A stretch of 28,749 nucleotides of DNA from a virus (taxonomy: Duplodnaviria; Caudoviricetes): the IMG/VR virus record IMGVR_UViG_3300027186_000018, positions 1 to 28,749 of that record. One strand, 5' to 3'. Positions 12,001-26,453 of this stretch are shown piece after piece. The position numbers and the translations under genes are program-made. The notes beneath the pieces were generated by a model. It was not told the origin of the DNA. It made no database searches and saw nothing but the letters and a program-made list of their open reading frames with translations. Within the stretch, counting starts at the first letter, position 1. Every line of letters begins with the position of its first letter.

Positions 12001-12255
12001 TTACTTCCTAGACTTAGCTCCTGAACACTTCCAACGCTTACGTGACAAGTTGTTGGGAGTATTAGGATCATTTTGCTTTGCTTTAGATAAACGCTTCTTA
12101 ATACCTAAGCTCCTCGCACAGTAGCTATCTCCTTTAGAAGTTCCCGGCTTGACTCTAGCTCCACCACCTTTAGCTTTACCAGCCTGTCCATAGCTAACCT
12201 TCTTGCCACTAGCAGTTACCTTTACTTTCGCCTTTCCTTTTCTAGGACTTGCCAT
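12001..12255 (-). CDS. small, very basic protein (KVSYGQ...SYCARS...RKRWKC)
   Basis: 84-aa ORF, GAGGAG RBS, very Lys/Gly-rich. Confidence 0.75.
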   Translation of the reverse strand: MASPRKGKAKVKVTASGKKVSYGQAGKAKGGGARVKPGTSKGDSYCARSLGIKKRLSKAKQNDPNTPNNLSRKRWKCSGAKSRK

Positions 12256-12331
12256 TTAGAATCTCCTCTTCTTTCTTAGTCATCCAAGACAGTATAAATA
12301 ATAAAAATGTTACACCGATAAAGCGCATCAT
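12242..12331 (-). CDS. possible 29-aa membrane peptide (MMRFIGVTFLLFILSWMTKKEEEILNGKS), not in the ORF track
   Basis: ATGA overlap with the upstream stop, one hydrophobic segment, bridges the gap. Confidence 0.45.
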   Translation of the reverse strand: MMRFIGVTFLLFILSWMTKKEEEILNGKS

Positions 12332-12573
12332 ACCCTTCTATGCTTTTTAGTTTTCTTTGCAATCTTCTTAGGCTGTGGACTGTGCTGCTTACCAGCCTTA
12401 GTATCCTTACGTTTCTTCGCGCTTGTTTTTGAATACTCAGAAGAGCTTAAAGATGCTATAGCCTTCTTAGGAAGATACCGCTCACCTGTTTCGCTAGACT
12501 TCTTACCAGACTTAGTACCCCAGTCTTGAGCTGTCCAAGCTTTTAAAGACTTTTGTGGTTTCTTAATAGCCAT
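12328..12573 (-). CDS. small basic protein, DUF5872-like C-terminal half
   Basis: QKSLKAWTAQDWGTKSG...ERYLPKKA...KAGKQ motif. Confidence 0.7.
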   Translation of the reverse strand: MAIKKPQKSLKAWTAQDWGTKSGKKSSETGERYLPKKAIASLSSSEYSKTSAKKRKDTKAGKQHSPQPKKIAKKTKKHRRV

Positions 12574-12752
12574 TACTTATACCCTCCACCTTTAGCTTTA
12601 TATTGTTTAGCTAACATCTGAGCCTTACGTGCTGACCACTGACCGGCTTTACCGCCTTTAGTTCCAGCTTTTATCTTGTTAAAAAGATTCTTACGCATGG
12701 TTGGTTTAGTATAATTACCTGCCGAATTAACTGTAGATTTCTTCTTTGCCAT
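12573..12752 (-). CDS. small basic protein (NYTKP...GGKAGQWSARKAQMLAKQYKAKGGGY)
   Basis: Start placed at 12752 (MAKKKS) from the AAGGA RBS and TAATG overlap; also TAATG-coupled to the next gene. Confidence 0.75.
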   Translation of the reverse strand: MAKKKSTVNSAGNYTKPTMRKNLFNKIKAGTKGGKAGQWSARKAQMLAKQYKAKGGGYK

Positions 12753-12907
12753 TAGCCGTCCTTCTTGTTCCATAATTCAAATAAGACTTTTATCTTTTCT
12801 TTGATAGTCTCAATGTCTCCGTGCATTTTAGCCAGCACAATAACAAGGGTAATAAAACCCATGAACATCGGCCAAGTAGAATTTAAAAATTCCATAGTAG
12901 TCATCAT
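12752..12907 (-). CDS. small membrane protein, 51 aa (TM helix plus short coiled coil), not in the ORF track
   Basis: MMTTMEFLNSTWPMFMGFITLVIVLAKMHGDIETIKEKIKVLFELWNKKDG, with ATGA and TAATG overlaps at its ends. Confidence 0.7.
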   Translation of the reverse strand: MMTTMEFLNSTWPMFMGFITLVIVLAKMHGDIETIKEKIKVLFELWNKKDG

Positions 12908-13308
12908 TTATCCCTGTGTACATTGTTTTTCTTTTCGTAGGTTCTCATTGCACCTAGACCAAGCATACCCATTAGCACAGGCATCATGGTTTCCAAAGGA
13001 ACTAAAGGTATAACTATGTCTAACTCAAGTAGCGCCAAAACAAAGTTACTAAACGGGATGGTAATAAAGTTACCAAACATACCTAAGCCACATGTCCAGC
13101 CGATAAACGGCCTCCAACCACTTACCATCAGGTTAGAGTTGGCCGCTTCGACCTCATTGATAGCCATCTGTCCTTTAGCAATCTCTAAGGCGTGGTTCTC
13201 AGCCATTGTAGCGACTTCATGCGCCAACGCAGCCTTCTGATCTTTGTCTTCTATGAACTTGTCTAGCAACCCCGTAACAGGCCCTATGAGAGCGTTCAAG
13301 ATAGCCAT
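12904..13308 (-). CDS. holin (3-TM, GTA-type holin family)
   Basis: GWRPFIGW and LMGMLGLGAMRTYEK motifs, hydrophobic segments, adjacent to the endolysin. Confidence 0.85.
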   Translation of the reverse strand: MAILNALIGPVTGLLDKFIEDKDQKAALAHEVATMAENHALEIAKGQMAINEVEAANSNLMVSGWRPFIGWTCGLGMFGNFITIPFSNFVLALLELDIVIPLVPLETMMPVLMGMLGLGAMRTYEKKNNVHRDK

Positions 13309-13677
13309 CTAGTAACTCCATACCCAAGGTCTAGGGCGGTTCTCAGCCCACTCAAGGTCGTCAAGGTGGATGAATCTGTTAGGGCCTTTCTGATTAACAC
13401 CTATACCTGTCATGCCCATGCTTAGTGCAGCTTCTAAAAGCCTGTGAGCCTGATTACCACCAACAGCAATATCTATGGCGTGTCCAGATTCATGCGCTCC
13501 GGGTGTCTTCTTCTTGCGCTCTATAACGTGGTCTTTACAGCGGTAAGCAGATGTAACAGTAAAAGGAAACCCTAGCTCATGGCGTAAGGCTTCTACCTTA
13601 ACCATAAACTCTTCGTCCATTCCCTGCTCGCCACAGTGTTGACATTTAAGCTCATCCATGCTAAAATATTTATACAT
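13309..13677 (-). CDS. endolysin, peptidase M15A family Zn peptidase
   Basis: YF...EL.CQHCG, VTSAYRC, H..GHAIDI and FIHLD Zn-ligand pattern. Confidence 0.9.
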   Translation of the reverse strand: MYKYFSMDELKCQHCGEQGMDEEFMVKVEALRHELGFPFTVTSAYRCKDHVIERKKKTPGAHESGHAIDIAVGGNQAHRLLEAALSMGMTGIGVNQKGPNRFIHLDDLEWAENRPRPWVWSY

Positions 13678-16600
13678 TATTTAACTTGCTCCTTAAAGAG
13701 TTTAAGACTTTACCACCTTTATTATTTCTGTTTCTTATTTTAGTTATTACTACAGAAACTCCGCTTATCCCTTGTTTATTTGGAACAGTTGAAACTTCAA
13801 AAGAATCTCCTAATACATCGGTAACGTACTTACTAAGCTCTTCCTTAGTAAAGCCTTTCTGATAAGATCCTGTAGATGTGGTAAAAGCCAAAGGTTCTTC
13901 TTTTACTGTCGTAGCTTTTTTAGAGGCCATACCCGCTTTAGCAGCACCAGCATCCCATGTCTGTATTAAAGCCTTGCCCCCAACCTTCAAAGCGTTTCCT
14001 ATATTAAAAACAGCTTCTTCTCTTAAACTAGGAGGGAGAACATTAATAACATTAGTACTAATAATTTTACCGTATTTATTTTTAGGAATCTCACTAGGAG
14101 ACATAAACGTAGGATTAAACTCTTGTTCTGGAAAAGGTTCAAAAGTATCATCTATTTTATTAGCTTTTGCATTTAATCCTTTACCTGCTCCGTAATCTAA
14201 AGACCTTCCTTTAACTCCTAACGAGTCTAAGTAAGAAGAAGCTTTTGTAGCTGTTCCAACAGTGTTAGCTCTTTGTGTTGTTTTAGAAGCACTGTTAGCT
14301 TTTAAAGCCGCATCTAAATCGTCTCCGCTTTTCTCAACAACATAAGAAGGTGCTTCCTCTCCGTCTTGTAAAGCTTTAGAAAGTTTATCACCTTCTTCAA
14401 TAAGCTCGTCAGTATTTTTTAAAGGAAGCTCTTCTACTACTTCATCATCAAATAATCTTAAAGCTTTTGTTCCAAGTCTGGTAACAAGACTGCCAGCACC
14501 AAAGCCCATACGCTGTAAGGGGTCTTGTTGTACTGAGCCACCTGCTCCAAAGCCCATACGTTGTAATGGATCTTGCCTGTCCTCCTGATCTGTAAAAGCT
14601 ATACCAGCCTGTTGATCGTAAGGCATACCTGTCATCTTATCGATGCGTTGATCAGGCTCAGGAGGGGCGTTAGGAACGTCTAAGACCTCTCCGCCTTTGT
14701 TATAGTCTGGACGATCCTCTAATATAGGAGAGCCTGTAATTCGTTTAGAGTAGCCTATAACCTCTCTACCAAAAGGAAGTTTTTCTGCTACGTTTTTAGC
14801 CGCCCCTTCAAAATCACCTTCCTTAATATTATTATAAGATCTTGTAAGACTATCTAAAAACCCATCAGCATAACTTAAAGAAGGAGAAATATTAGAAGAA
14901 ATAAGCCTGTTACTTGGGGAGCCTAAAGCTCCTACAAGCTTGTCAACATGCCAAGGAAGTATGTTACCACTAAGCTTTAAAGACTCTTTAATATGTTTTG
15001 TATCAAGAGCTTCGTGAGATTCTGCATCGCGTCTTTCGTAAGGAGAAGCCCACTCTCGAAGAGACTGAACACCCATATAAACACTACCAAGACCCAAAGC
15101 TCTTACAGCTAAAGCACCATCTCCATTTTCTACCCGCCCTACTAAAGCATTCGTCTGAGCTGTTTTAGCTTGTGACCATGACAGAAACTGTCCTAATGAT
15201 TTAATGTAAGGATTACCTGACTGAGTAAAAAACAACCTATTGCCGTACATAGGTACAATAGCATCTCTGTCAGCCGCTCTTCTTCCAGCCATGTTTAAAA
15301 CTTTCTGAGCGTCATCAGCGTCAAAAGCTTTAGTCACATCTTCATACTTAGACAACATCTTCAACTCATCTAAAGACTGTATTCCTAGTTCGCTCATTTC
15401 TTTTTGAACAGAAGAACTAATCTTGTTTCCTTTTCCTGCTACTTCTTTAGATAAATCAAAAGCTCTTCTTACTCCTACGTCATAAGCAAAGCCTCTAGCT
15501 ACTCTTGTAATTCTTGGAAGCTGTACAATATTAAAAAACTTTCTATTCCACGTATCTAAAGCGCCTTGAACAGAATCAAAAGGATCAGTACCATGAGCCA
15601 TCATTGCCGAATATTCTCTTTCAAAAGACTTATCGTACTTAAAACCAGACTTAGAAGAGAAGGATTCTCCCGGCTGTACTCTAGACATAATGCTTTTAAT
15701 TGCTGGCATAACACCACTGTTTTGTATAGGCTGAACAAGATCACCCAGAGCTGAGATACTTACTCTAGTCAACATTGTAGTATTAGCCAAGGTTGTAACT
15801 AAAGCCATGCCTGTAACACCCATACTATTTGAGTTAGGAACAGCTCCGTGAACGCCCCAAAAAATCTCAGCCATGCCTTTTAAGTTCTTTATATAGGTAG
15901 CCTCAAACTTAGCAGAGTCTCCTGTAGCATTCTTAAAAGCTCTTGTAGTGTCATCTAAAGCCCTGTTAAAAAGCTCTCCATTCGCACCTATTGTATTAGC
16001 CCACGAACGCATCTTAATAGCTCTGTCTGCGTACTGCATAGAGATAGCAGTAGAGTCTAAATTAAGCCAGCCTTTCTCAGCCATAAAAGAAGTAGCTTCT
16101 ACATCAGTAAGAACCCTGTGCTTTTCAAAGTTACTGGCAAGCGGTCTAAATCTTCCGTCAGGCCCAAAAATACTTAAACTTTCATAAGTGTTTTTAGCAC
16201 CCTGTGCTCTAGGAACTCCCCTAATGTTATCTACAAATCTGGAAGCAGCCTTATCAATAGCATCATCAGTAGGCATTGTTTTTCTTAAACCCGCTGATAC
16301 TTTGTTTTTAGCTTGAATTTCTAAAGCAGTTCTAACATCTTTAAGAAAAGACTTTTCTCCCCCTTTACGAATAAACTTAAAATCCCAAAGCTGTGCTAAT
16401 CCATAATTCTCAATATCAGTAAACTCTATTCCCGCCTCACGCATCGTACCTTTTAGTTTACCGTTTGCTTGAGCAACAAGAGGAACAATTCTTTTAACTT
16501 CAGAAACATCTTCCGCAGTGAGTCCATTGTTTTTAAAAAGTCCACTGATTCCAGCATAGCCTTCCTCAATTTCATCGATACCTCTCCAGCCTCTTAGTAC

Positions 16601-18295
16601 CTCTGTAACAGTTTTTACAACTTTCTGATTTTCAAAAGAGTCTCCGTACATTCTAGCCATATTTCCTACGTACTCAGCAGAGTCATTCAAGAAAATAGTT
16701 TCTACGCCGTTAGTAGCTCCTCCCGGTTTTTGAAATATAAGATTAGAAAGAACCTTGTTCCAGCCTCCCAAAGCATCAGACTTGGTTGCCACTGTACCTG
16801 CGCTATGAAACTTTACAGCCGTGTTTACATTCTGCTGTGCGGCTTCACCTAAAGCCAATTTAGCTGTGTCTAAGTCTAAGGCAGTCAAGTTCATCTTTTG
16901 TATAACTTTTTGATACTGTCCAAGAGCAGCACCTGCTCCAATAAGACCAACCATTAACGCAGTGTCATCCTCATCTCCGATAAAACCGGAAGAAACGTAC
17001 CCGCCTATGCCACCTATAATAGGTCTTGTAGGCTCAAAGATTAAAGACTTTATTATATTATCTGTTAGCTTGTTATTTTTATTTAAATCTTCCAAAACAT
17101 TACCAGCTAAATCTACTCTAGCCGTTGCGGCTTTAATGTGTCCACCATAAAAATTATCTTTAGCAGAGGATATCTTAGTCTGAATAGAATCAACTTGATT
17201 TAACAATCTATTTCTATAGTCTTTAGCACCCTTAGCACCTTTTTTAGGTTGAGATTCTGCTTGAGTCCTAAAAAAGTTTATCTGCTCATCTATTTCTTTT
17301 AAAGACGGTAAAGGCTTTCCTTGGTCTTGAGCTTCTTTAATAAGATCTTTTCTTTCCTTTTCAGATTTTTTAAGAAGATCCTCTGCGCGTACTTCTGATT
17401 TCTGCAAAGCTTTTAGATCAGCAAGAACACTTTCTAACTGTTTAATAGGTTCATAACGCATAGTTAAATTTGTACCAGTTGCTGTAGCTTCTGGTATAGC
17501 TGCTATCCTAGACTCCACAGTAACAACTCTTCTTGTAGCCTCTTCAACAGCAGAGGCTTCTTCGTTGGTAAGAGCGGTAACAATTACTCTAGGTTTCTGA
17601 CCTGCCTCCGTAGAACCCCGTACACGTACTCTTTCTTTAGCCTGTTGCGTCTGAACAGTGGGAGCTTCAATAGAAACTCTTTCTGTAGCTGTTGGAGAAG
17701 AACCCACCTCGTCAAAAGCTTCTGAAACCCTTTTGTCTATAGGCTGTTTATTCCTAACCTTAGACGCTAAGTGTCCACTTAATGCACCTAGTGAACCGCC
17801 TAACACAGTAGCAGCTCCTACGTTTATAGGATTGATTTCACCGTAAACAAGCTGATCTCGAAGAGCAGCATCTGTAGCATTAAAGCCAGCACCCGCTGCT
17901 GCACCTGCTAACTTACCTGCCTTAGCAACCTTTAACCACGGAAACAACCATGTAACAGGGTCGGCAACAGCAACGCCTAAACGACCTGTTAGCTCCGCAG
18001 CTCCTTCTTTAGCTTCAGAAATACCTTTAAACTTTGGATACTCTTTAAAAATATCACGCTGCCTTTCATCCTCTACCCTAGATAAAGCAGTATCATAGCT
18101 TACATCGTCTGTAATAGAGTCGTATAAAGCTTCTCCGTACCTAAACAGATTACCTGTTAGAGTCGTTTCTTGAGCAGCCCCGTAAGCAATTTTTTCAGCC
18201 GTTGCTAGTTGATCATAGTTATCTTCGTTGTCTAGCATTAACTGACGTTGAGCGTTAGCACGTTGCATTATTTCTTCTTCAGAAAATAAATCCAT
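13670..18295 (-). CDS. large probable internal virion/ejection protein with a C-terminal SAM-dependent methyltransferase domain
   Basis: 1541 aa, last and largest of the internal-protein block (the T7 gp16 position), with Gly/Ala hydrophobic segments. The C-terminus reads LDYGAGKG...IISTNVINVL...GGKALI. Confidence 0.75.
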   Translation of the reverse strand: MDLFSEEEIMQRANAQRQLMLDNEDNYDQLATAEKIAYGAAQETTLTGNLFRYGEALYDSITDDVSYDTALSRVEDERQRDIFKEYPKFKGISEAKEGAAELTGRLGVAVADPVTWLFPWLKVAKAGKLAGAAAGAGFNATDAALRDQLVYGEINPINVGAATVLGGSLGALSGHLASKVRNKQPIDKRVSEAFDEVGSSPTATERVSIEAPTVQTQQAKERVRVRGSTEAGQKPRVIVTALTNEEASAVEEATRRVVTVESRIAAIPEATATGTNLTMRYEPIKQLESVLADLKALQKSEVRAEDLLKKSEKERKDLIKEAQDQGKPLPSLKEIDEQINFFRTQAESQPKKGAKGAKDYRNRLLNQVDSIQTKISSAKDNFYGGHIKAATARVDLAGNVLEDLNKNNKLTDNIIKSLIFEPTRPIIGGIGGYVSSGFIGDEDDTALMVGLIGAGAALGQYQKVIQKMNLTALDLDTAKLALGEAAQQNVNTAVKFHSAGTVATKSDALGGWNKVLSNLIFQKPGGATNGVETIFLNDSAEYVGNMARMYGDSFENQKVVKTVTEVLRGWRGIDEIEEGYAGISGLFKNNGLTAEDVSEVKRIVPLVAQANGKLKGTMREAGIEFTDIENYGLAQLWDFKFIRKGGEKSFLKDVRTALEIQAKNKVSAGLRKTMPTDDAIDKAASRFVDNIRGVPRAQGAKNTYESLSIFGPDGRFRPLASNFEKHRVLTDVEATSFMAEKGWLNLDSTAISMQYADRAIKMRSWANTIGANGELFNRALDDTTRAFKNATGDSAKFEATYIKNLKGMAEIFWGVHGAVPNSNSMGVTGMALVTTLANTTMLTRVSISALGDLVQPIQNSGVMPAIKSIMSRVQPGESFSSKSGFKYDKSFEREYSAMMAHGTDPFDSVQGALDTWNRKFFNIVQLPRITRVARGFAYDVGVRRAFDLSKEVAGKGNKISSSVQKEMSELGIQSLDELKMLSKYEDVTKAFDADDAQKVLNMAGRRAADRDAIVPMYGNRLFFTQSGNPYIKSLGQFLSWSQAKTAQTNALVGRVENGDGALAVRALGLGSVYMGVQSLREWASPYERRDAESHEALDTKHIKESLKLSGNILPWHVDKLVGALGSPSNRLISSNISPSLSYADGFLDSLTRSYNNIKEGDFEGAAKNVAEKLPFGREVIGYSKRITGSPILEDRPDYNKGGEVLDVPNAPPEPDQRIDKMTGMPYDQQAGIAFTDQEDRQDPLQRMGFGAGGSVQQDPLQRMGFGAGSLVTRLGTKALRLFDDEVVEELPLKNTDELIEEGDKLSKALQDGEEAPSYVVEKSGDDLDAALKANSASKTTQRANTVGTATKASSYLDSLGVKGRSLDYGAGKGLNAKANKIDDTFEPFPEQEFNPTFMSPSEIPKNKYGKIISTNVINVLPPSLREEAVFNIGNALKVGGKALIQTWDAGAAKAGMASKKATTVKEEPLAFTTSTGSYQKGFTKEELSKYVTDVLGDSFEVSTVPNKQGISGVSVVITKIRNRNNKGGKVLNSLRSKLNNV
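14493..14575 (-). repeat. tandem direct repeat, 2 x 35 bp with a 48-bp period, encoding QDPLQRMGFGAG
   Basis: 14493-14527 versus 14541-14575: five mismatches, all synonymous. Confidence 0.9.
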
Positions 18296-18305
18296 ATCTT
18301 AATCC

Positions 18306-20894
18306 TTAAACAGATAATAAAGCTAATACTTGATTTGCTAACTCTTTACCATAAGAAGACGTTAAAGTTTTTTTCAAATCTTTATCTGAAATAGCATTTA
18401 GATTACGAAGCTGTTTAACTTCTTCAGCTATTTGACGAGCTTCAACAGGCATTGCATCCAACGCAGAACTAATTTCATCCTGAACAGGACTTTTATTTTT
18501 TATACTATCAGCTTTTAAAGGTACTGACTGTCCTAGTATTCCTAAGAGTGTTTTAATTTGATCCTCTTCAGGGTCTATTAATTTCTTAGGAGCATTGTCT
18601 TGTAAAATCGTTAACACTTTTTGTAGCTGTTCATCAGTAGGATCAACAAGTCCACTCATAACCTCACGTACCTGAGAACGACTTAGATCTGCTCCTAGTT
18701 GCTCTTTTACTTCAGTTTTCATTTTACTTACCACACCCCTTCCTTCCTTAGTGGCAACAGAAGGAACGTCAAAAGAGTTAACAATTTCTTGAGCTTCAAT
18801 AGATAAAGAACTTTGATCTGCAATAGAAGAAGTAGGCTTACGACTGTCTGAAAATCCCTTGTTCCTTTCAATATCATAAAGAAGACCTTGCTGCCTATCT
18901 GATGGCGTTGCAGGTGCTTCTAATAAGCTAGAGGTTTCCTCAAGAGGAATAGGTTCAAGAGCAGAAGTAGCCGTAATAGAAGGAACATCCGACTTAGATT
19001 TAGGAAGAAACGATCTTCGAGCATCGCCTATAGTAGGATCTAACGCTTCTATCCAAGAACCCACATCTACAGGATCAGGAGTTCCTCCTAAAAAGGTGCT
19101 TTTAGAAGCCATTCTTCTAAAATTTTCTCTAGTGTTTTCACTACGATACCTCCCATCCACCATTTTTATTAGCGTGTCTAGCCCTGAACCCGGAACTATA
19201 TTACTACCACTTTCTGTTTTAGGAGTAGTGTAATTTGATACATCAACACCACTTCTTTCATAAGCAGCAATACGCTTTTCTTGTTCGGCTCCAGATAAAG
19301 ACTCTATTTGATCTATATCTACCTGTTCTAAAGGTACAATAATATTTACGTCTCTAGAAGACGGTCTACCAGAGCTAACATCCCTTGATAACTGCTGAAC
19401 GCGGCGGCGGCTTTCTGGACTAACATCTTGTTGCCAAACAGATGTATAATCAAAACCACTATCAGCTAAAGCACCAGTATATTTAACGTCCGTAACGCTT
19501 GACCAGCCTAACAGATTTGTTTCTTTCTTACCGCCTGTAAAGTCCAAAGAGTTTAGAGCTGAAGTAGCACCCTGCATAATTATACCTAATTGATCAGAAG
19601 GGCTAGTTCTTTGTATGTAGCTTTCTTGATCATCAACAGACATACTATCGTAATGCCTTGCAAAATTTAGCTGCGCTGAAGTAACAGCAGATCCCGTAAG
19701 AGCCGCCCACTTAGCATCTACTTTTGTTTTAATAGCAGAAGAGGCTTTATTATAACCGTCAGAAGCCCCAAACTGTTCTGCTACATTGTCTTTAAACGCA
19801 ACTTTAGTAGCTTGAATAAGAGGATTTGTAGCTAAACTTTCTTCAAGAGTGTTACGTTGACTGACATTAATCTTTAATCCAAAAAGATCCAGCTCATCCC
19901 CAAGATGTTGAATAACTTGCTGCTGCCGTGGCGCTCTGCTTTTAGGGTCTTTTGCTTTAAGATTTCTATAAGCCCTTATAACAGATTTAGATGCTGTTCC
20001 TTGGTTGACTGCTATTACAAAAGCTTTATGATCTTGCTCACCAGCCCACCAGTTTTGTAATATTGGGTCTTTGCTTTGAGAAAGCATTTCTATTTTATTT
20101 TCTAACTTAGACACACTTAAACCTGCTTTAGAAGCTTCTAAAAGCTCTGAAGTTTCATCATCATCTAAGCCTAAACCCTGCCTAGCAACCATAATGGCTC
20201 TTTCTTTTTCTTGTTGGGTAGGGCCTTTAAAAGCTTCTAAAGGTGAAGTACCTGTTAATGTTCTCTTTAAACCCCTAAAAAATCCTCCTACTGGGCCAGA
20301 AGCGTAAGGAGTTGACTTTGCTAAAATATCGGTTACATCTTGACCTTTTTTAAAAGCAGCTACCGCATCTCTTCCTGACACATATTGATTATTTTCTTCT
20401 GTAGCTCTTTCTTTTATACTATTATTTAAACTTGCTCTATATTGATTATACATAACTGCAACTTCAGAATCTTTAAGATCTTGCTCTGTGTAACCTTGAT
20501 CCATGAAAAACTGTCGAGAGCTTTCATCTGCTTCTTTTGTAAGCTTATCAAAATGGTATTCATAAGAGTCACCTTGAAAGTCAGTATCTATTTTTTTCCC
20601 AATCAGACCATATCTTTCTTGTTGTTTTTTGATAGCTTTTAAATCTTTTTTAAGTAAACGTCCTTGTTCAGTTTTCAAAAGTTTTTCTACAGGTTTTTCA
20701 AAAGGAGCAGAGATAAGATTAGACACGCCTTTTGCCAGCTCTTGTCCTAAAGGAGCAATAACATACCCAAGAAGTTGATCTCTTCTTGCTCGCTTTCTAT
20801 ACTCCTCTTCTTCCTTACGCCTACGGTTATACTCAGCAGTAGTACCAGCTCCTAAAATAGAATAAGCTTTATACAGGTCATTGTTCTCAGCCAT
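18306..20894 (-). CDS. probable internal virion protein
   Basis: 862-aa helical/low-complexity ORF at the gp15-like position; no motif recognised. Confidence 0.6.
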   Translation of the reverse strand: MAENNDLYKAYSILGAGTTAEYNRRRKEEEEYRKRARRDQLLGYVIAPLGQELAKGVSNLISAPFEKPVEKLLKTEQGRLLKKDLKAIKKQQERYGLIGKKIDTDFQGDSYEYHFDKLTKEADESSRQFFMDQGYTEQDLKDSEVAVMYNQYRASLNNSIKERATEENNQYVSGRDAVAAFKKGQDVTDILAKSTPYASGPVGGFFRGLKRTLTGTSPLEAFKGPTQQEKERAIMVARQGLGLDDDETSELLEASKAGLSVSKLENKIEMLSQSKDPILQNWWAGEQDHKAFVIAVNQGTASKSVIRAYRNLKAKDPKSRAPRQQQVIQHLGDELDLFGLKINVSQRNTLEESLATNPLIQATKVAFKDNVAEQFGASDGYNKASSAIKTKVDAKWAALTGSAVTSAQLNFARHYDSMSVDDQESYIQRTSPSDQLGIIMQGATSALNSLDFTGGKKETNLLGWSSVTDVKYTGALADSGFDYTSVWQQDVSPESRRRVQQLSRDVSSGRPSSRDVNIIVPLEQVDIDQIESLSGAEQEKRIAAYERSGVDVSNYTTPKTESGSNIVPGSGLDTLIKMVDGRYRSENTRENFRRMASKSTFLGGTPDPVDVGSWIEALDPTIGDARRSFLPKSKSDVPSITATSALEPIPLEETSSLLEAPATPSDRQQGLLYDIERNKGFSDSRKPTSSIADQSSLSIEAQEIVNSFDVPSVATKEGRGVVSKMKTEVKEQLGADLSRSQVREVMSGLVDPTDEQLQKVLTILQDNAPKKLIDPEEDQIKTLLGILGQSVPLKADSIKNKSPVQDEISSALDAMPVEARQIAEEVKQLRNLNAISDKDLKKTLTSSYGKELANQVLALLSV

Positions 20895-21443
20895 TTACTT
20901 TTCTCCTAACAAAGAACGCTGCTTAGGCGGTTCTACTTTATCTAGCTTGTTTGCAAGCTCAACAGGAAATTCATCATCCATCTGAGGCTTTTGAATTGTG
21001 CTTAGTTTTTGATCCATAACAGAAGGCTGTGGAGCATCAGAGTCTTCGTCATCCTCGTCTTCGTCTTCGTCATCTTCTGCAATAATAAAATCTACGTCAG
21101 CTCTTTCTGCTAGTGCAGCTATCATATAAGCAAGCGGTTCAGCAATCAGTATCATCATATCAGGATTAAACAGTCCGTCCTGAAAGCCTTGGAATAACAA
21201 AACCTTCACGATGTCCATAACTGGTATACCCTCTTCAAGAGAGTCTAAAACACTTATATAAGTTTCTTCTTCTGTAAGCATCTCAAAATAGTTTTCTAAA
21301 ACATCTGTCCTGTTAGTAAACTGCGGAGGTTTTTCAAAAGGAGCAGGGCTTTCTGGATCTCTTGTTAAAGACTGTCCGGGTATAGCTCTATTAAAAGATG
21401 TACCAACTTTAAAGAAAGCATCGTCTATTGCTTGATCTGCCAT
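20895..21443 (-). CDS. hypothetical virion-associated protein
   Basis: 182 aa with IPGQSLT..P...PFEKPPQF and an acidic linker; lies within the structural operon. Confidence 0.6.
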   Translation of the reverse strand: MADQAIDDAFFKVGTSFNRAIPGQSLTRDPESPAPFEKPPQFTNRTDVLENYFEMLTEEETYISVLDSLEEGIPVMDIVKVLLFQGFQDGLFNPDMMILIAEPLAYMIAALAERADVDFIIAEDDEDEDEDDEDSDAPQPSVMDQKLSTIQKPQMDDEFPVELANKLDKVEPPKQRSLLGEK

Positions 21444-21445
21444 GC

Positions 21446-22597
21446 TTAACCCCCTTGCCCTGCGTAACGCTGCATATAACTATTATAAAAATCAATACCG
21501 CCGTAAGCACCCTGTGGATCAGTATTGAAGACCGCCATATTCTGCTGTGCAAAAGATTCAAAGCTCATAGGAGCAGCGCTTTCTTGTTGGCTCCGAGCGT
21601 AACCAGATTGATAAGCAGAGGGGTTGTTTGCTCTCCAAGATAGGCCTTGATCATATTCTTCAGGGCCTAGACCAACAAGATTAGACAAACCTTCTTTAAA
21701 TGTGCTTTTTACTATACTACCGGGAGCTGCTAACAGGCTGTCTACAGCATAGTCTTTTACCTTACCCGGAGCAGCTTTTAAAGCACCACCTATAGTTTGC
21801 TCACCTGTCACCCTTTCAACGCCTCTAGAAAACCAGCTTTGGTCTTCAGCTACTTCTGCTGTAGGAGATATTCCAACAGAGGTAGAATTAGGGAATGTTG
21901 CTTTTACTGGGTCTATTAAACCTTTATCAGTATTTATATTATCAATACGATTACCGTTAGCATCAATTTTAAAACTCTTATCAGCCGCTGTTTTTTGCTG
22001 CTCTTTTATTTTGTTTCCAACGTCTTCTTTAATACTTTCTAACTCTTTATTATCTTGTACTTTAATATCAAAAGCTGATTTTTCACCGGCAGTCATTATG
22101 CCTCTGTCAGCAAAGTCTGCTGTAGTAGAGTTCCAAAAGTTGCTTGCTTGATCTCCAAGCTTTGCAAAACTATCAGTAAGCCTACCGCCAAAGCCTTGTT
22201 GTCCAAAAGCTTGACTAAGAGTTTGATTAGTCCCTATTCCTAGCTTACCACCAACATACTTAGCAGTAGTCCCGATAAAGTCAGTAACAGCTCCTGTAAC
22301 AGTTTTAAAACCTGTTGCAATTGTCTTAGCAAATGTACCAGCTTTACCTAGTACCCAGCCAGCAGCCTTACCTATAGACCCTAACGCTCCTCCTGCTAAG
22401 GCAGAAGTAGCAGTTCCGAATCCTGCCATTAAAGCATTACCTATCCCCGGAAGAATAAAAGCCATAGCAATCTGACCGACAATGCCGATCTTATTCATAA
22501 ACTTTCCAACTTTTTTAAATACGGATTTAACAGTTTTGCCAATCTTTTTCCAAACCTTGCCAACAGTTTTCTTCCATAATTTTTTAAAAAACCCCAT
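21446..22597 (-). CDS. probable ejection/membrane-penetrating protein
   Basis: Cationic amphipathic N-terminus followed by a Gly/Ala hydrophobic tract; AGGAG RBS. Confidence 0.6.
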   Translation of the reverse strand: MGFFKKLWKKTVGKVWKKIGKTVKSVFKKVGKFMNKIGIVGQIAMAFILPGIGNALMAGFGTATSALAGGALGSIGKAAGWVLGKAGTFAKTIATGFKTVTGAVTDFIGTTAKYVGGKLGIGTNQTLSQAFGQQGFGGRLTDSFAKLGDQASNFWNSTTADFADRGIMTAGEKSAFDIKVQDNKELESIKEDVGNKIKEQQKTAADKSFKIDANGNRIDNINTDKGLIDPVKATFPNSTSVGISPTAEVAEDQSWFSRGVERVTGEQTIGGALKAAPGKVKDYAVDSLLAAPGSIVKSTFKEGLSNLVGLGPEEYDQGLSWRANNPSAYQSGYARSQQESAAPMSFESFAQQNMAVFNTDPQGAYGGIDFYNSYMQRYAGQGG

Positions 22598-22619
22598 CTA
22601 TACTTCTCCTATAGTAATA

Positions 22620-25600
22620 CTAAGTACCAGTAACTTTCTTTAAAAGCCTGAAAATTTCTTCTCTTTTATTAGCCATATTTTTATCAGTCATAAAAGCCTC
22701 GTTAGAAAGCGCTGACTGAACAACAGTTACAAGCCTATCGTCTTGTGCCATGTCTGTCCTAAAAATTCTATCTGCATCATCTCTTAAACCTTGCCACATT
22801 TGAGTCTGCTCTGTAATATCCATCTGAAACTCAAAACCTGCTTGTTGTTGATTAGCTGCATTTTGAGCAGCAGTATTTGCCGTGTTAAGACCACGCCGCC
22901 ACGTTAAATCTGCCTGTTGGATTGCTTGTGCATTAGCTGCGTTCCACTGTTCAGCTTTAAAGTCTTGATCAGAGTTAAACTGCTTAACCTGCGTAGCAAT
23001 CTGAGTGTTAAACTTTTCAGCCTCTAAAGCGTTACCAGCGTCCATTGCAGCCATCCTGTTTTTTTCTGCTGCATTAAACTGAGTCATAGCATTTTGTTGT
23101 GAAGTATTAAACTGGTTTGCGTTCTGACCTAGCGTAGCCATAAACTGATTTGTTTGATTTTCAGATGTAGCATTAAACTGCTTAGAAGCGTTAGTAGCAG
23201 ATTGGTTAGACAACAAAGTCTGTTGATCCATTTGAGCATTCATCATATTAGCTTGTTGCTCGTTACTTAGGTTAGCCATATCCATTGCTAAAAAGCTTTT
23301 AGAGTTTTCAATGTTTACCTTAGTTACTGCATCAGCATTAGCTAAATCCATAGCTGCATTAGCCGTAGCATTCTGCATCATTGCTTGCTGCCTGTTGTCC
23401 AAATCTTTAACAGTCATTGTTTGCATAAATTGACTATTAGCTATTTCCGTTTGCTGATTAGCGTCAAACTGTTTCATGTCCATGTTAGCGTCTATCTGAG
23501 CATTGAACATTGCAGCGTCTTGCTTGTTAGATAAATTAGCAAGACCCATTTGCTGCGCAAGCTGCGCGTTAGTCTGTGCGGCTGACATTTTCTTTTCAAA
23601 CTTTTGAAGCTCTACCATATTTTCAGCAGACATAGATTCTGAATCAGCTTGGTTCTGAGCTGTCAGATTTGCCAAGCTCATTTTTTCTTTAGCATTTAGC
23701 TTTGCTGCCTGTGCATTTAATCTTAAATCTTCGTTTTTACTCATAACATCAACATAAGTAACGTATTCTTGCAGCTTCATACGATTAGCTTCAGTCATAT
23801 TAGCAGAATCTGTAGCTGCTCTTTCGGCTAAATTAGCCATTTCCATTTGTTGTTCGTTATTAAGATTAGCAAGATCCATCTGCTGTGCAAGGCTTGCATT
23901 AGTCTTTTTAAAGTCTACAAGAGTTTGTAAATTAGTAAGACGTTCTTGATTTTCAGAATTCATTGTATCTTTAGCTGCTGCATTCTGCTCGCTAAGATTA
24001 GTTAATTCCATTCGCAAACTAGAATCTAAATTAGCTTTTTCCATGTCCTGATCAAGTTCAGCTTGACGCATGATACGATTAATTTTAGCGTTATAACCAG
24101 CTAATCTTGCTTGTTGATCTGCATCTAAATTCTTACCTGCTGCAGCGTTAAGGGCTTCTAAGTTAGCTAAATCTGAACGGCTTCCTGCATCTAAATTAGC
24201 TAAAGCTGTTTGTTGCCTTTGCGAAGATTCCTGAGAAGCTTTCTGTTGAGCATTCTGAACATTCTGCTGCCTTACCTGTTGCTGTTGATCAGCCGTAGTA
24301 ATTGTAGCTTGCTGCTTAAACTGGCTTTGTTGTACTTTTATCTGCTGTGCCATGTCAGCAGTCTGAGAAGCCGCTGTCTGCTTATTAGATAAGTTAGCCA
24401 TTCTAACAGTCATAGTATTCTGAGCAGAAGCTAAGTTAGCCTGTTGCTCATTACTTAGGTTTTGAGCTGCTCGCTGCTGAAGGGCCTGTGCGTTGCTCTG
24501 AGCCATAGGTAGAGCACTTTGAATAATAGCATTAAACAAAGCATCACGGCCTACTGTGGACGCTGAGAGGCCTCTCTGAGCCATTTGCTGCTCTATGGCT
24601 GCTACCGCTGGTCTAGCCCATGCAGGAGTCTTACCGTCTTCCATACCTGCTAAGAGGTTTTCCATCTGTGTAGATACAAGAGCCTCTTCTGGTAAAGCAG
24701 CAACAGCCGCTATAACTTCAAGGTTTTCGCCTTTATCTATCTGAGCTTCTACTGTAGCGGGGTCTTCAGCTATTGCTGCAGTTACTTCAGGAGGAATATT
24801 ACCAACAACAGCCATCATATCAGACGCTGCTGCTTTACGTTCTTCGCCTGTAATAGCTTGCATTTGAGCAGCAGCCATAGTAGGAATACCACCAATTTGA
24901 GAAGCATCACCCTGTGGAGCAGTGCCTGTAATCGCTTCACGGCCTTCAAAGTCTACCGAAGGTGCGTCTCCTAATTGCGTAGCTACTTTTGTTTTAGCTT
25001 CGCCTACTTGAGCTTCTCTTTTTTTAGCTAAAGCAAACTCAGGTATCTTTTCAAGATCAACACCTTCTTCAGATATAATATCTAAAATTTCTTTCTGTTT
25101 TCTATTTGAAATAGTGTTAGCAATTCTTGAAGCCGCTACAGGATCTTCAGCATTTATAACTTTAAAGCGTTCATCAGTTGTTACACCTTCAGCATAATCT
25201 TTCGCTTCTGGCCTTTGAGCAGCCGTAGCTAAAGCCTCTTTTTCTTGTGCTGCATCTCTTCCAACCGCTTCAGCGCCTTGGGTTAATGTAGCTACACCAG
25301 CTTTAGCAGCGTCATCAAAAGTACCATCCGTAGCTGCTTCAGCTCTAGTACGGTCTTCGTCGCTTATTACATCAGCAGTAATAGTTTTAGCCGTTACTTT
25401 ATCTTGATCAGCAGCCGTTTTAGCCGTACCTTGTTCAACAGTAGTCGTACCGGCTGTAACATCTGTAGGATCAGCTATCTTATCCCTGTCCTCGCCTGTT
25501 GCTAGTTGTTGTATATCTTCTTCTGAAGTTTTTAAAGAAGGGTCATCGCTTTGGAAATCAGCTACGGTTCTACCACCAGCCATGTTTGCCATTTCCTGTG

Positions 25601-26453
25601 GAGTTTTTTGAAAAGTATTTCCAAGGCTATCAACAACAGAGTAGCTACCTGTCTCAGGATTATAAGTAGCTGACATAGAGCCTTCTTTAAAAGCTTGAGT
25701 TTCCATTAAAGCTGCATCTAATTGTTTGTAGTCAAAAACTTGACCAGCTTTAACAATCTCAGCTTTAGGCGGAACATAGTCTGCTCTTTGTTGCTTTAAC
25801 TCTTCTTTCTTTTCTTCAAGCTCTTCAGTAGTTACCAACTCGCTATCACTACCACTACCACCACCAGTATCGCCCTTAGAAGCTTGCCAAGCTTTTAAAG
25901 CCTCTCTATATGCTTCATTACCTTCTTTGCCTCTTCCATAATTTTCTCTTTCAGGCATCCCAGAAAGATCTTCATCAATATTAAAGTCAGTACCAACACC
26001 AGCAGACTGAGCCATAAGAGCCGTTCCAGCGTTTTGAGCTTGCGGGATATTTGCAGCCTTTCTAGCGTTTTGCTGTAGCCGTTCTTTAATAGATTTATCA
26101 GAGTTTTCTAAGTCGTTAAAAGATACGGCTTCTGTTCCTTCTGTACCGCCTAATTCTTTATAAGACTTTGTAGATTGTTGGCCTAACCCTGTACTCTCGC
26201 CTGTCCGTTGTTGCGGAAGAAAATCAAAACCTCCACTCATTTGTTGAAAGCCTTTACTATCATCTGTTTGTTTAGAGTCTTTCGTGAATATAGGATTAGA
26301 AGTTTTAGCTGTCTGAGTAGACTTTTTAGGGGCAACGCCTAATTGCTCTTCTAGCTCTTTTCTACCGCCACGGCGAGCATTAACACGGCCACCAGTATTA
26401 AACTTTTTCTTTAAAGCGTTAAGAGCCTTGCCTTTCTTTTTTTCATCAGTCAT
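22620..26453 (-). CDS. large Gln/Asn/Ala-rich coiled-coil protein, probable internal virion/DNA-ejection protein
   Basis: 1277 aa; the C-terminal half is built from ANLxNxQQ-type repeats. Confidence 0.65.
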   Translation of the reverse strand: MTDEKKKGKALNALKKKFNTGGRVNARRGGRKELEEQLGVAPKKSTQTAKTSNPIFTKDSKQTDDSKGFQQMSGGFDFLPQQRTGESTGLGQQSTKSYKELGGTEGTEAVSFNDLENSDKSIKERLQQNARKAANIPQAQNAGTALMAQSAGVGTDFNIDEDLSGMPERENYGRGKEGNEAYREALKAWQASKGDTGGGSGSDSELVTTEELEEKKEELKQQRADYVPPKAEIVKAGQVFDYKQLDAALMETQAFKEGSMSATYNPETGSYSVVDSLGNTFQKTPQEMANMAGGRTVADFQSDDPSLKTSEEDIQQLATGEDRDKIADPTDVTAGTTTVEQGTAKTAADQDKVTAKTITADVISDEDRTRAEAATDGTFDDAAKAGVATLTQGAEAVGRDAAQEKEALATAAQRPEAKDYAEGVTTDERFKVINAEDPVAASRIANTISNRKQKEILDIISEEGVDLEKIPEFALAKKREAQVGEAKTKVATQLGDAPSVDFEGREAITGTAPQGDASQIGGIPTMAAAQMQAITGEERKAAASDMMAVVGNIPPEVTAAIAEDPATVEAQIDKGENLEVIAAVAALPEEALVSTQMENLLAGMEDGKTPAWARPAVAAIEQQMAQRGLSASTVGRDALFNAIIQSALPMAQSNAQALQQRAAQNLSNEQQANLASAQNTMTVRMANLSNKQTAASQTADMAQQIKVQQSQFKQQATITTADQQQQVRQQNVQNAQQKASQESSQRQQTALANLDAGSRSDLANLEALNAAAGKNLDADQQARLAGYNAKINRIMRQAELDQDMEKANLDSSLRMELTNLSEQNAAAKDTMNSENQERLTNLQTLVDFKKTNASLAQQMDLANLNNEQQMEMANLAERAATDSANMTEANRMKLQEYVTYVDVMSKNEDLRLNAQAAKLNAKEKMSLANLTAQNQADSESMSAENMVELQKFEKKMSAAQTNAQLAQQMGLANLSNKQDAAMFNAQIDANMDMKQFDANQQTEIANSQFMQTMTVKDLDNRQQAMMQNATANAAMDLANADAVTKVNIENSKSFLAMDMANLSNEQQANMMNAQMDQQTLLSNQSATNASKQFNATSENQTNQFMATLGQNANQFNTSQQNAMTQFNAAEKNRMAAMDAGNALEAEKFNTQIATQVKQFNSDQDFKAEQWNAANAQAIQQADLTWRRGLNTANTAAQNAANQQQAGFEFQMDITEQTQMWQGLRDDADRIFRTDMAQDDRLVTVVQSALSNEAFMTDKNMANKREEIFRLLKKVTGT

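Follow-up and report, generated by a model that had tools for sequence, protein, structure and literature searches.

A giant phage protein of 1541 amino acids, by its modelled core a probable ejection protein of the T7 gp16 type, ends in a domain that models as a class I SAM-dependent methyltransferase (MTase), and this domain is an optional, swappable cassette. The protein is encoded on the minus strand of a linear virus record that was analysed in its entirety (28,749 bases, about 58% complete, hereafter the window), in a reading frame with no stop inside. Our tentative reading of the whole is that of a packaged and ejected MTase, housed in an exchangeable gp16-like slot, which would methylate nucleic acid to blunt host defence. 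The features discussed below, all of them on the minus strand, are the following:

18306..26453, minus strand: four ORFs upstream of the 1541-aa ORF (862, 182, 383 and 1277 aa), all cysteine-free
13670..18295, minus strand: probable T7 gp16-like ejection (internal virion) protein of 1541 aa, with a C-terminal effector cassette and no cysteine
14684..16795, minus strand: modelled helical core, aa 501-1204 (AF2, Foldseek, VIA)
14510..14704, minus strand: conserved linker, aa 1198-1262, starting with a Y-x-K-G-G-E-V motif; cassette exchange point
14294..14509, minus strand: acidic spacer ahead of the cargo domain, aa 1263-1334
13736..14293, minus strand: predicted class I SAM-dependent MTase domain, aa 1335-1520, of a TIGR04096-related phage family without a name
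14177..14200, minus strand: motif I, LDYGAGKG, aa 1366-1373, the glycine-rich predicted SAM-binding loop
14132..14143, minus strand: FEPF at the end of strand 2, with the acidic E1386 (98% conserved) and P1387; predicted SAM-ribose contact
14036..14077, minus strand: strand 4 followed by the N-V-x-N-V motif (KYG...NVL)
13964-13990, minus strand: LKVGGKALI motif
13835..13882, minus strand: hairpin and Q-K-G-F...E-L motif (TTST...EEL)
13673..13726, minus strand: C-terminal tag of the G-G-K-V-L...L-R type, retained whatever cargo occupies the slot
12904..13677, minus strand: endolysin (Peptidase M15) and holin with three transmembrane segments, directly downstream of the 1541-aa ORF

The plus strand of the window encodes ThyX, a T7-like primase-helicase, DNA polymerase A and a ribonucleotide reductase, and the minus strand a tail fibre, the four cysteine-free ORFs, the 1541-aa ORF, the endolysin and the holin. 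The giant ORF is the last large gene of a podovirus virion module, whose end is marked by the endolysin/holin pair. Family searches with the four upstream ORFs gave no match; their order is conserved in other loci (L001-L004, L006, L007, L023 and L031), and they likely represent the remaining internal or ejected proteins. Three small, very basic ORFs at the end of the late module (84, 81 and 66 aa; PHROGs 14910 and 17747; window 12001-12773, minus strand) possibly encode DNA-condensing or internal proteins. The nearest cultured relatives of the body of the giant ORF are giant proteins of the Pelagibacter phages HTVC103P, 104P and 115P (23-30% identity), described as podoviruses in the accessible part of the source (10.1101/2019.12.14.876532). 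Most sequencing runs that contain the window region are metagenomes from marine sources, seawater or brine. Contigs of one RNA run, X15, also span the region, but as this run may contain DNA, they are not counted as evidence of expression.

The carrier had been put forward in the original prediction as a probable ejection protein, an assignment supported by its core and its orthologues. An AF2 model of the core, built from 70 sequences, reached a pLDDT of 73, and its first ~500 residues align to residues 516-1272 of the T7 core chain 9jyy_I, which from its length we infer to be gp16, and to the PhiM1 and E1004 ejection proteins. The five best Foldseek matches were the PhiM1 ejectosome protein, E1004 core proteins and the T7 core chain, with E values from 5e-4 to 2e-2 and the next one at 0.5, and the VIA structure comparison gave Z scores of 10.1, 9.8 and 8.7, which are below the caution level of about 13 that applies to helical models; the next match reaches 4.8. 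Two core orthologues (P0263 and P0255) match PHROG 342, 'internal virion protein', with E values of 1e-18 and 1e-13, and 2 cysteines occur in the 120,318 residues of the 82 core orthologues. When the core sequence served as query, a viral scan found nothing, and sequence searches against PDB returned chance matches only. The available text of PMC8954989 describes the C-terminal part of T7 gp16 (gp16-C), which overlaps the matched region 516-1272, as cytoplasmic and DNA-binding, and the peptidoglycan hydrolase domain of gp16-type proteins as phage-specific. A Pfam search of the 1541-aa protein detected no peptidoglycan hydrolase or transglycosylase; the orthologue P0247 carries an N-terminal SLT, and in HTVC103P gp52 and P0013 a lysozyme lies C-terminal to the MTase. 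Since a lysozyme must act in the periplasm, the location of the cassette is not simple.

All the motifs quoted in the original prediction are indeed found at the C-terminus of the protein, and the Rossmann MTase fold expected from them is recovered by modelling; for motif I the sequence LDYGAGKG was right, and the coordinates given (14177-14197) fell one codon short. Single-sequence searches of NCBIfam, PHROG and PDB with the MTase domain were nearly blank, and profiles were needed. Pfam Methyltransf_23 matches the domain taken alone at E=7e-4, and a match at E<=0.1 is present in 38 of 41 members of the family. An AF2 model built on the alignment of 41 distinct relatives (pLDDT 92.4, pTM 0.89) adopts a seven-stranded Rossmann-like fold, for which every Foldseek match listed against PDB is an MTase or MTase-like enzyme and the best VIA comparison gives a Z of 15.4 (164 aligned, rmsd 3.1). 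The closest solved folds, sharing 12-21% identity with the domain, are the tRNA MTases Trm9 and METTL6 (Z 14.4 and 13.8, both among the top structural and profile matches) and small-molecule class I MTases (5cm2, 8p7b, 2p8j, 3e23, 5ufm), with Z of 13.8-15.4 and rmsd of about 3 Å; as the top VIA rows, which also include uncharacterised MTases, are nearly tied, these neighbours do not identify the substrate.

Conservation across 268 aligned rows reaches 90-99% for D1367, G1369, G1371 and E1386, with D1367 and G1371 of motif I at 99% each. The near-invariant residues comprise T1340, Q1341, T1345, D1367, G1371, E1386, P1387, N1418, R1425, Q1479, K1480 and E1486, among which N1418 (invariant) and the pair Q1479 and K1480 (99-100%) are common to TIGR04096; the invariant K1480, Q1479, T1340, Q1341 and T1345 could serve as phosphate binders. 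Estimates of dN/dS lie between 0.07 and 0.17 in eight of nine pairs, the remaining pair being saturated, and these sequence comparisons indicate that the domain is under purifying selection. The MTase is very probably catalytically active. Its fusion to the giant protein, also part of the original prediction, is real, because an independent protein cluster of 28 members (P0006) is 96% identical across aa 1-1525 and in run X3 the junction between core and cassette lies within overlapping contigs; a mis-assembly was considered and is excluded by these same data.

Two aspects that the original prediction did not contain are the optional nature of the domain and the wide spread of its family. A census of the slot in 82 proteins (the query and 81 core homologues, a list outside which stand P0003-P0005 and L007, with the same core and the MTase) found the MTase in 4, an empty slot in 33, a domain like gp82 of phage L5 in 23, an HExxH peptidase-like domain in 9, a divergent sister MTase in 2 and unassigned content in 17, some orthologues carrying two cargo domains. 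The query protein consists of the core plus one enzyme, and its 96% identical counterpart P0006 carries an extra HExxH domain. The core of P0003 is 31% identical to that of the query, and the two proteins are 98-100% identical from aa 1198 onward; conversely, P0199 and P0196 share 68% identity with the query over the core, yet lack the MTase. A GG-x-V motif lies near the end of the core in 76 of the 82 orthologues, and the tails (25,722 residues) contain 152 instances of the pattern, the cores (94,596 residues) 96. Contigs in runs X3 and X6 branch off the window at 14698, inside this motif, and continue, as judged by eye, into the core of P0003; the depth in X3 is 26 over the cassette and 13 over the core. 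Other branches are found at 13730, which reads as the extension of P0006, and at 14297, where a contig of X15 appears to carry the cargo of P0269 in place of the MTase, while a joint in X8 that omits 909 bases of the cassette is weak, its short side being 22 letters. These sequences indicate that cassettes are swapped at the short GG-x-V linker, also among phages of a single seawater sample.

The final 21 aa form a separate tag, common to orthologues without the MTase, whose pattern is present in 42 of the 82. Between 14510 and 14600, the linker contains two tandem copies of a ~16-aa repeat, the number of which differs between orthologues. In HTVC103P gp52 and P0013, MTase and lysozyme alike are flanked by the GG-x-V motif, which is seen as well near the N-terminus (aa 18-24; 26382-26402) of the Gln/Ala/Met-rich ORF of 1277 aa (22620-26453, minus strand), and this hints at a packaging or cleavage signal shared by the internal proteins of the phage. 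As for the alternative cargoes, the most common one, the domain like Mycobacterium phage L5 gp82 (PF25735), occupies the tails of P0194, P0196, P0197, P0204, P0206, P0220, P0267 and others. The divergent MTase subfamily (P0260, aa ~1300-1475, and P0262) shows a similar N-T-L-N-V motif and has relatives in Vibrio phage D479 and in a 485-kb phage. An ART-like cargo is a weak call, given that an ART-PolyVal seed search over the 82 tails found none and that the Pfam ART match in P0269 and P0270 reaches an E of 0.063 only.

Beyond this slot, a profile of the MTase collects 477 clusters, formed at 50% identity, with E<=1e-30; relaxing the cut-off to E<=1e-10 raises the number to 926. The family was matched in 265 viral-contig stretches (80 of them retrieved), 34 genome loci and 13 phage records. 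Its members occur in abundant marine podoviruses, mycobacteriophages and gut prophages, with HTVC103P, HTVC104P, CRP-3, CRP-738 and Myrna as cultured carriers, and 256 of 268 domains are free of cysteine. Their contexts include several unrelated giants of the ejection type; large proteins encoded between portal and scaffold or capsid genes, such as CRP-3 gp36, between the portal and coat genes; a fusion with a head protease, Myrna gp97; solo proteins of 190-330 aa adjoining terminase or portal genes; and prophage giants of 3,000-5,000 aa with ART-PolyVal, PBECR, MuF_C, InPase, kinase and LPD domains. A tree of 53 rows, without those identical to stored proteins (so that both TIGR04096 loci are missing), requires 18 changes of carrier label, as assigned here, versus a minimum of 8; its deep forks being open, it serves solely to show that carrier types are mixed.

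Some of these contexts deserve a separate mention. Solo MTases of 259-271 aa (L008-L011, L027 and L028), encoded between endolysin and terminase genes, begin with a Gly/Ala-rich leader of 75-87 aa, and a similar leader lies inside P0018. Within a T4-like contig of 259 kb (L048:8699-11100, L046:1541-4003), several small ORFs stand in a row behind the genes for head protease and capsid, and there a solo MTase adjoins a kinase like T7 0.7, the N-terminal leaders being near-identical; this leader presumably resembles the capsid-targeting sequences of T4, and the small ORFs that bear it are likely internal head proteins. Myrna gp97 (L019:10804-14439), recorded as a 'tape measure', combines a head-maturation protease, a tape-measure-like motif and the MTase, which is missing from most of its cluster C orthologues; the main text of PMC7150772, as far as accessible, contains no mass spectrometry for it. 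No virion proteomics or assay was found in the literature for any member of the family.

Under the preferred reading, the 1541-aa protein would be packed in the head core and ejected unfolded, as a cysteine-free chain, its C-terminus ending up in the cytoplasm at the site of genome entry, within reach of SAM. The MTase would then use host SAM to modify nucleic acid, within which class incoming phage DNA, at a non-canonical site, would be the most likely target, and this methylation would blunt DNA-directed host defences ahead of phage gene expression. The steps differ in strength. Packaging and ejection of the MTase-bearing protein are highly likely, since the slot stands at the tail end of a protein resembling one that T7 ejects, and the recurrence of the domain in contexts of packaged type was likewise counted for this reading; a cytoplasmic C-terminus is likely by analogy with T7 gp16-C, and the MTase probably acts after injection, as a conflict effector. 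A nucleic acid is the substrate towards which we lean slightly, because of the position at DNA entry, the relatives linked to dnd genes or ArdC, and the invariant Lys, Gln and Thr; the Trm9 and METTL6 matches, the dnd-linked nearest family and the plasmid contexts were also counted for it. Taken one by one, phage DNA is a doubtful target and host DNA or RNA an unlikely one. Several findings were counted against the preferred reading: the best VIA neighbours are mostly small-molecule or peptide MTases, no DNA adenine or cytosine MTase is found among the best 50 VIA rows, the domain has neither an NPPY-type motif nor a target-recognition domain and a net charge of about +5 only, a solo copy in L066 lies away from the head genes, between those of a GTP cyclohydrolase and a DNA polymerase, and the relatives on plasmids are no components of virions.

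Actions on a protein or a metabolite, or at the time of packaging, stay under consideration because of the lack of a DNA-MTase motif, the neighbours of small-molecule type and the presence, in some carriers, of a lysozyme behind the MTase. Injected ADP-ribosyltransferases and kinases modify host proteins, and the MTase could likewise, if improbably, methylate a defence enzyme, the RNA polymerase or a translation factor of the host: it shares slots or polypeptides with ART-like, kinase and HExxH domains, it neighbours the 0.7-like kinase under near-identical leaders in the T4-like contig, and the peptide MTases CgnL and CypM are among its fold matches. Proteins could equally be the substrates of the slot's alternative cargoes, the peptidase-like one and the weakly supported ART-like one. 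Conservation of a protein target of the MTase would, however, have to extend across Pelagibacter, Mycobacterium and Clostridia, and the closest named family and the plasmid relatives sit in neighbourhoods of DNA modification or anti-restriction. Few gp16 copies reach a cell (six in the T7 post-ejection form, according to the accessible text of PMC8954989) and the gene context suggests no acceptor, two points that speak against an enzyme that depletes SAM, or methylates a metabolite or a signalling nucleotide, and thereby disables SAM-dependent or nucleotide-signalling defences; the compact domain without a recognition domain and the majority of small-molecule MTases among the top fold neighbours would fit this quite improbable activity.

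Equally improbable is that the MTase works in the producing cell, where SAM is also present: placed in the internal core above the portal, it would methylate DNA or head proteins as packaging proceeds, and its injection would be incidental. Solo copies do cluster near terminase and portal genes, but a free, late-expressed enzyme would suffice for such a task without fusion to an ejection protein, and the MTase is interchangeable with cargoes of a host-directed type and with a lysozyme. Its dispensability (4 of 82 orthologues) would suit an inactive hitch-hiker, or a SAM-binding decoy without catalysis, an explanation that purifying selection and the near-invariance of the active-site residues in 267 distinct domains make very hard to sustain. 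A bolder version of the preferred reading, which we regard as speculative and improbable, would see here an undescribed and widespread class of virion-delivered MTases writing a non-canonical mark (on the DNA backbone, a phosphorothioate sulphur or a ring nitrogen such as cytosine N3) at genome entry, countering phosphorothioate-type or other DNA surveillance, and loaded through the GG-x-V cassette as an exchangeable delivery platform.

Enzymes injected with phage DNA work before any phage gene is expressed, and for this role the accessible text of PMC5512222 describes MTases of the DarB type, from which the present family differs. Its cultured carriers make the family testable, its substrate would hint at the function of the uncharacterised TIGR04096, and the bounded slot of a gp16-like protein reveals a cargo-tolerant site and offers a route to mine new phage effectors. 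No account of either the family or the slot was found in the literature covered, with subscription papers outside its scope, nor in the accessible parts of PMC10853773, PMC12839542, PMC7824862, PMC7150772, PMC8954989, PMC10386132 and PMC9927239; the supplement of PMC5512222 may list the domain.

Among named systems, sequence comparison places TIGR04096, for which no functional study was found in the literature, as the nearest relative of the MTase domain, without making the latter a member; the likeness announced in the original prediction stands, and membership of the family is not supported. Of 41 relatives, 32 find TIGR04096 as their best-scoring NCBIfam family, with E values down to 7e-8, and hhalign pairs the domain with a TIGR04096 protein, P0047, at 96.7% probability and E 5e-10, over residues 211-333 of 686 only. 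Both share the D-Y-G-x-G motif, the acidic residue and P after strand 2, V-x-N-V, the R, Q-K and E-L..Y..LG, and they find each other reciprocally, if weakly, by tblastn. However, neither the window protein nor the MTase domain matched any NCBIfam family, TIGR04096 included, at E<=1, and no dnd gene is present among the 26 ORFs scanned in the window (a record about 58% complete). TIGR04096 proteins are 666-686 aa long, with large flanks, and cellular or plasmid-borne, whereas the MTase is a bare cysteine-free domain of 186 aa and a presumed virion cargo; both TIGR04096 proteins examined have a Cys in motif I. Two of five TIGR04096 loci adjoin dndBCDE or dndDE, and in the remaining three the neighbourhood contains a DUF4007 gene, a cysteine desulfurase gene, or neither of these. 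Three of five loci with short plasmid relatives have a telling context (ArdC nearby, an adjacent PAPS-reductase gene, or fusion to an EEP nuclease/phosphatase), and the other two have none; the fusion with the EEP nuclease/phosphatase, from a Streptomyces plasmid (L129:5194-6549), lies near a cysteine desulfurase gene. The deazaguanine MTase DpdM was also considered and rejected, as its accessible description is that of a cysteine/metal-dependent DUF3109 protein (10.1101/2023.04.13.536721).

DarB, the precedent invoked in the original prediction, holds for the early-phase conflict strategy, in which a virion protein brings an MTase into the cell along with the DNA, and fails for the type of enzyme. 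The DarB-type MTase is described in the accessible text of Iyer et al. 2017 (PMC5512222) as a gamma-class N6-adenine enzyme with NPP(Y/F), accompanied by LPD36 and an SF2 helicase, whereas the present domain belongs to the Methyltransf_11/23/25-like branch and lacks all three: NPPY-type motifs are found in none of 267 distinct domains of the family, Pfam gives no match to an SF2/SWI2-SNF2 helicase or LPD36 in the 1541-aa protein at E<=0.1, and just 21 aa follow the MTase domain. One locus, L092, holds the MTase domain plus a separate methylase-helicase module. With the ejection proteins T7 gp16, PhiM1 and E1004, the carrier shares the predicted core fold, its place as last large gene of the virion module and the absence of cysteine; unlike them, it bears a variable C-terminal cassette behind the gp16-like body, with no transglycosylase detected. 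Polyvalent proteins (ART-PolyVal, PBECR, zincin, LPD), within which relatives of the MTase are found, share modular exchange with the carrier and, like it, are encoded among virion genes; the MTase named for them in the accessible text of PMC5512222, whose supplement contains 131 domains, is of the DarB type only. Injected enzymes and polyvalent proteins were already known; for the MTase family and its bounded slot, the literature covered gave no earlier description.
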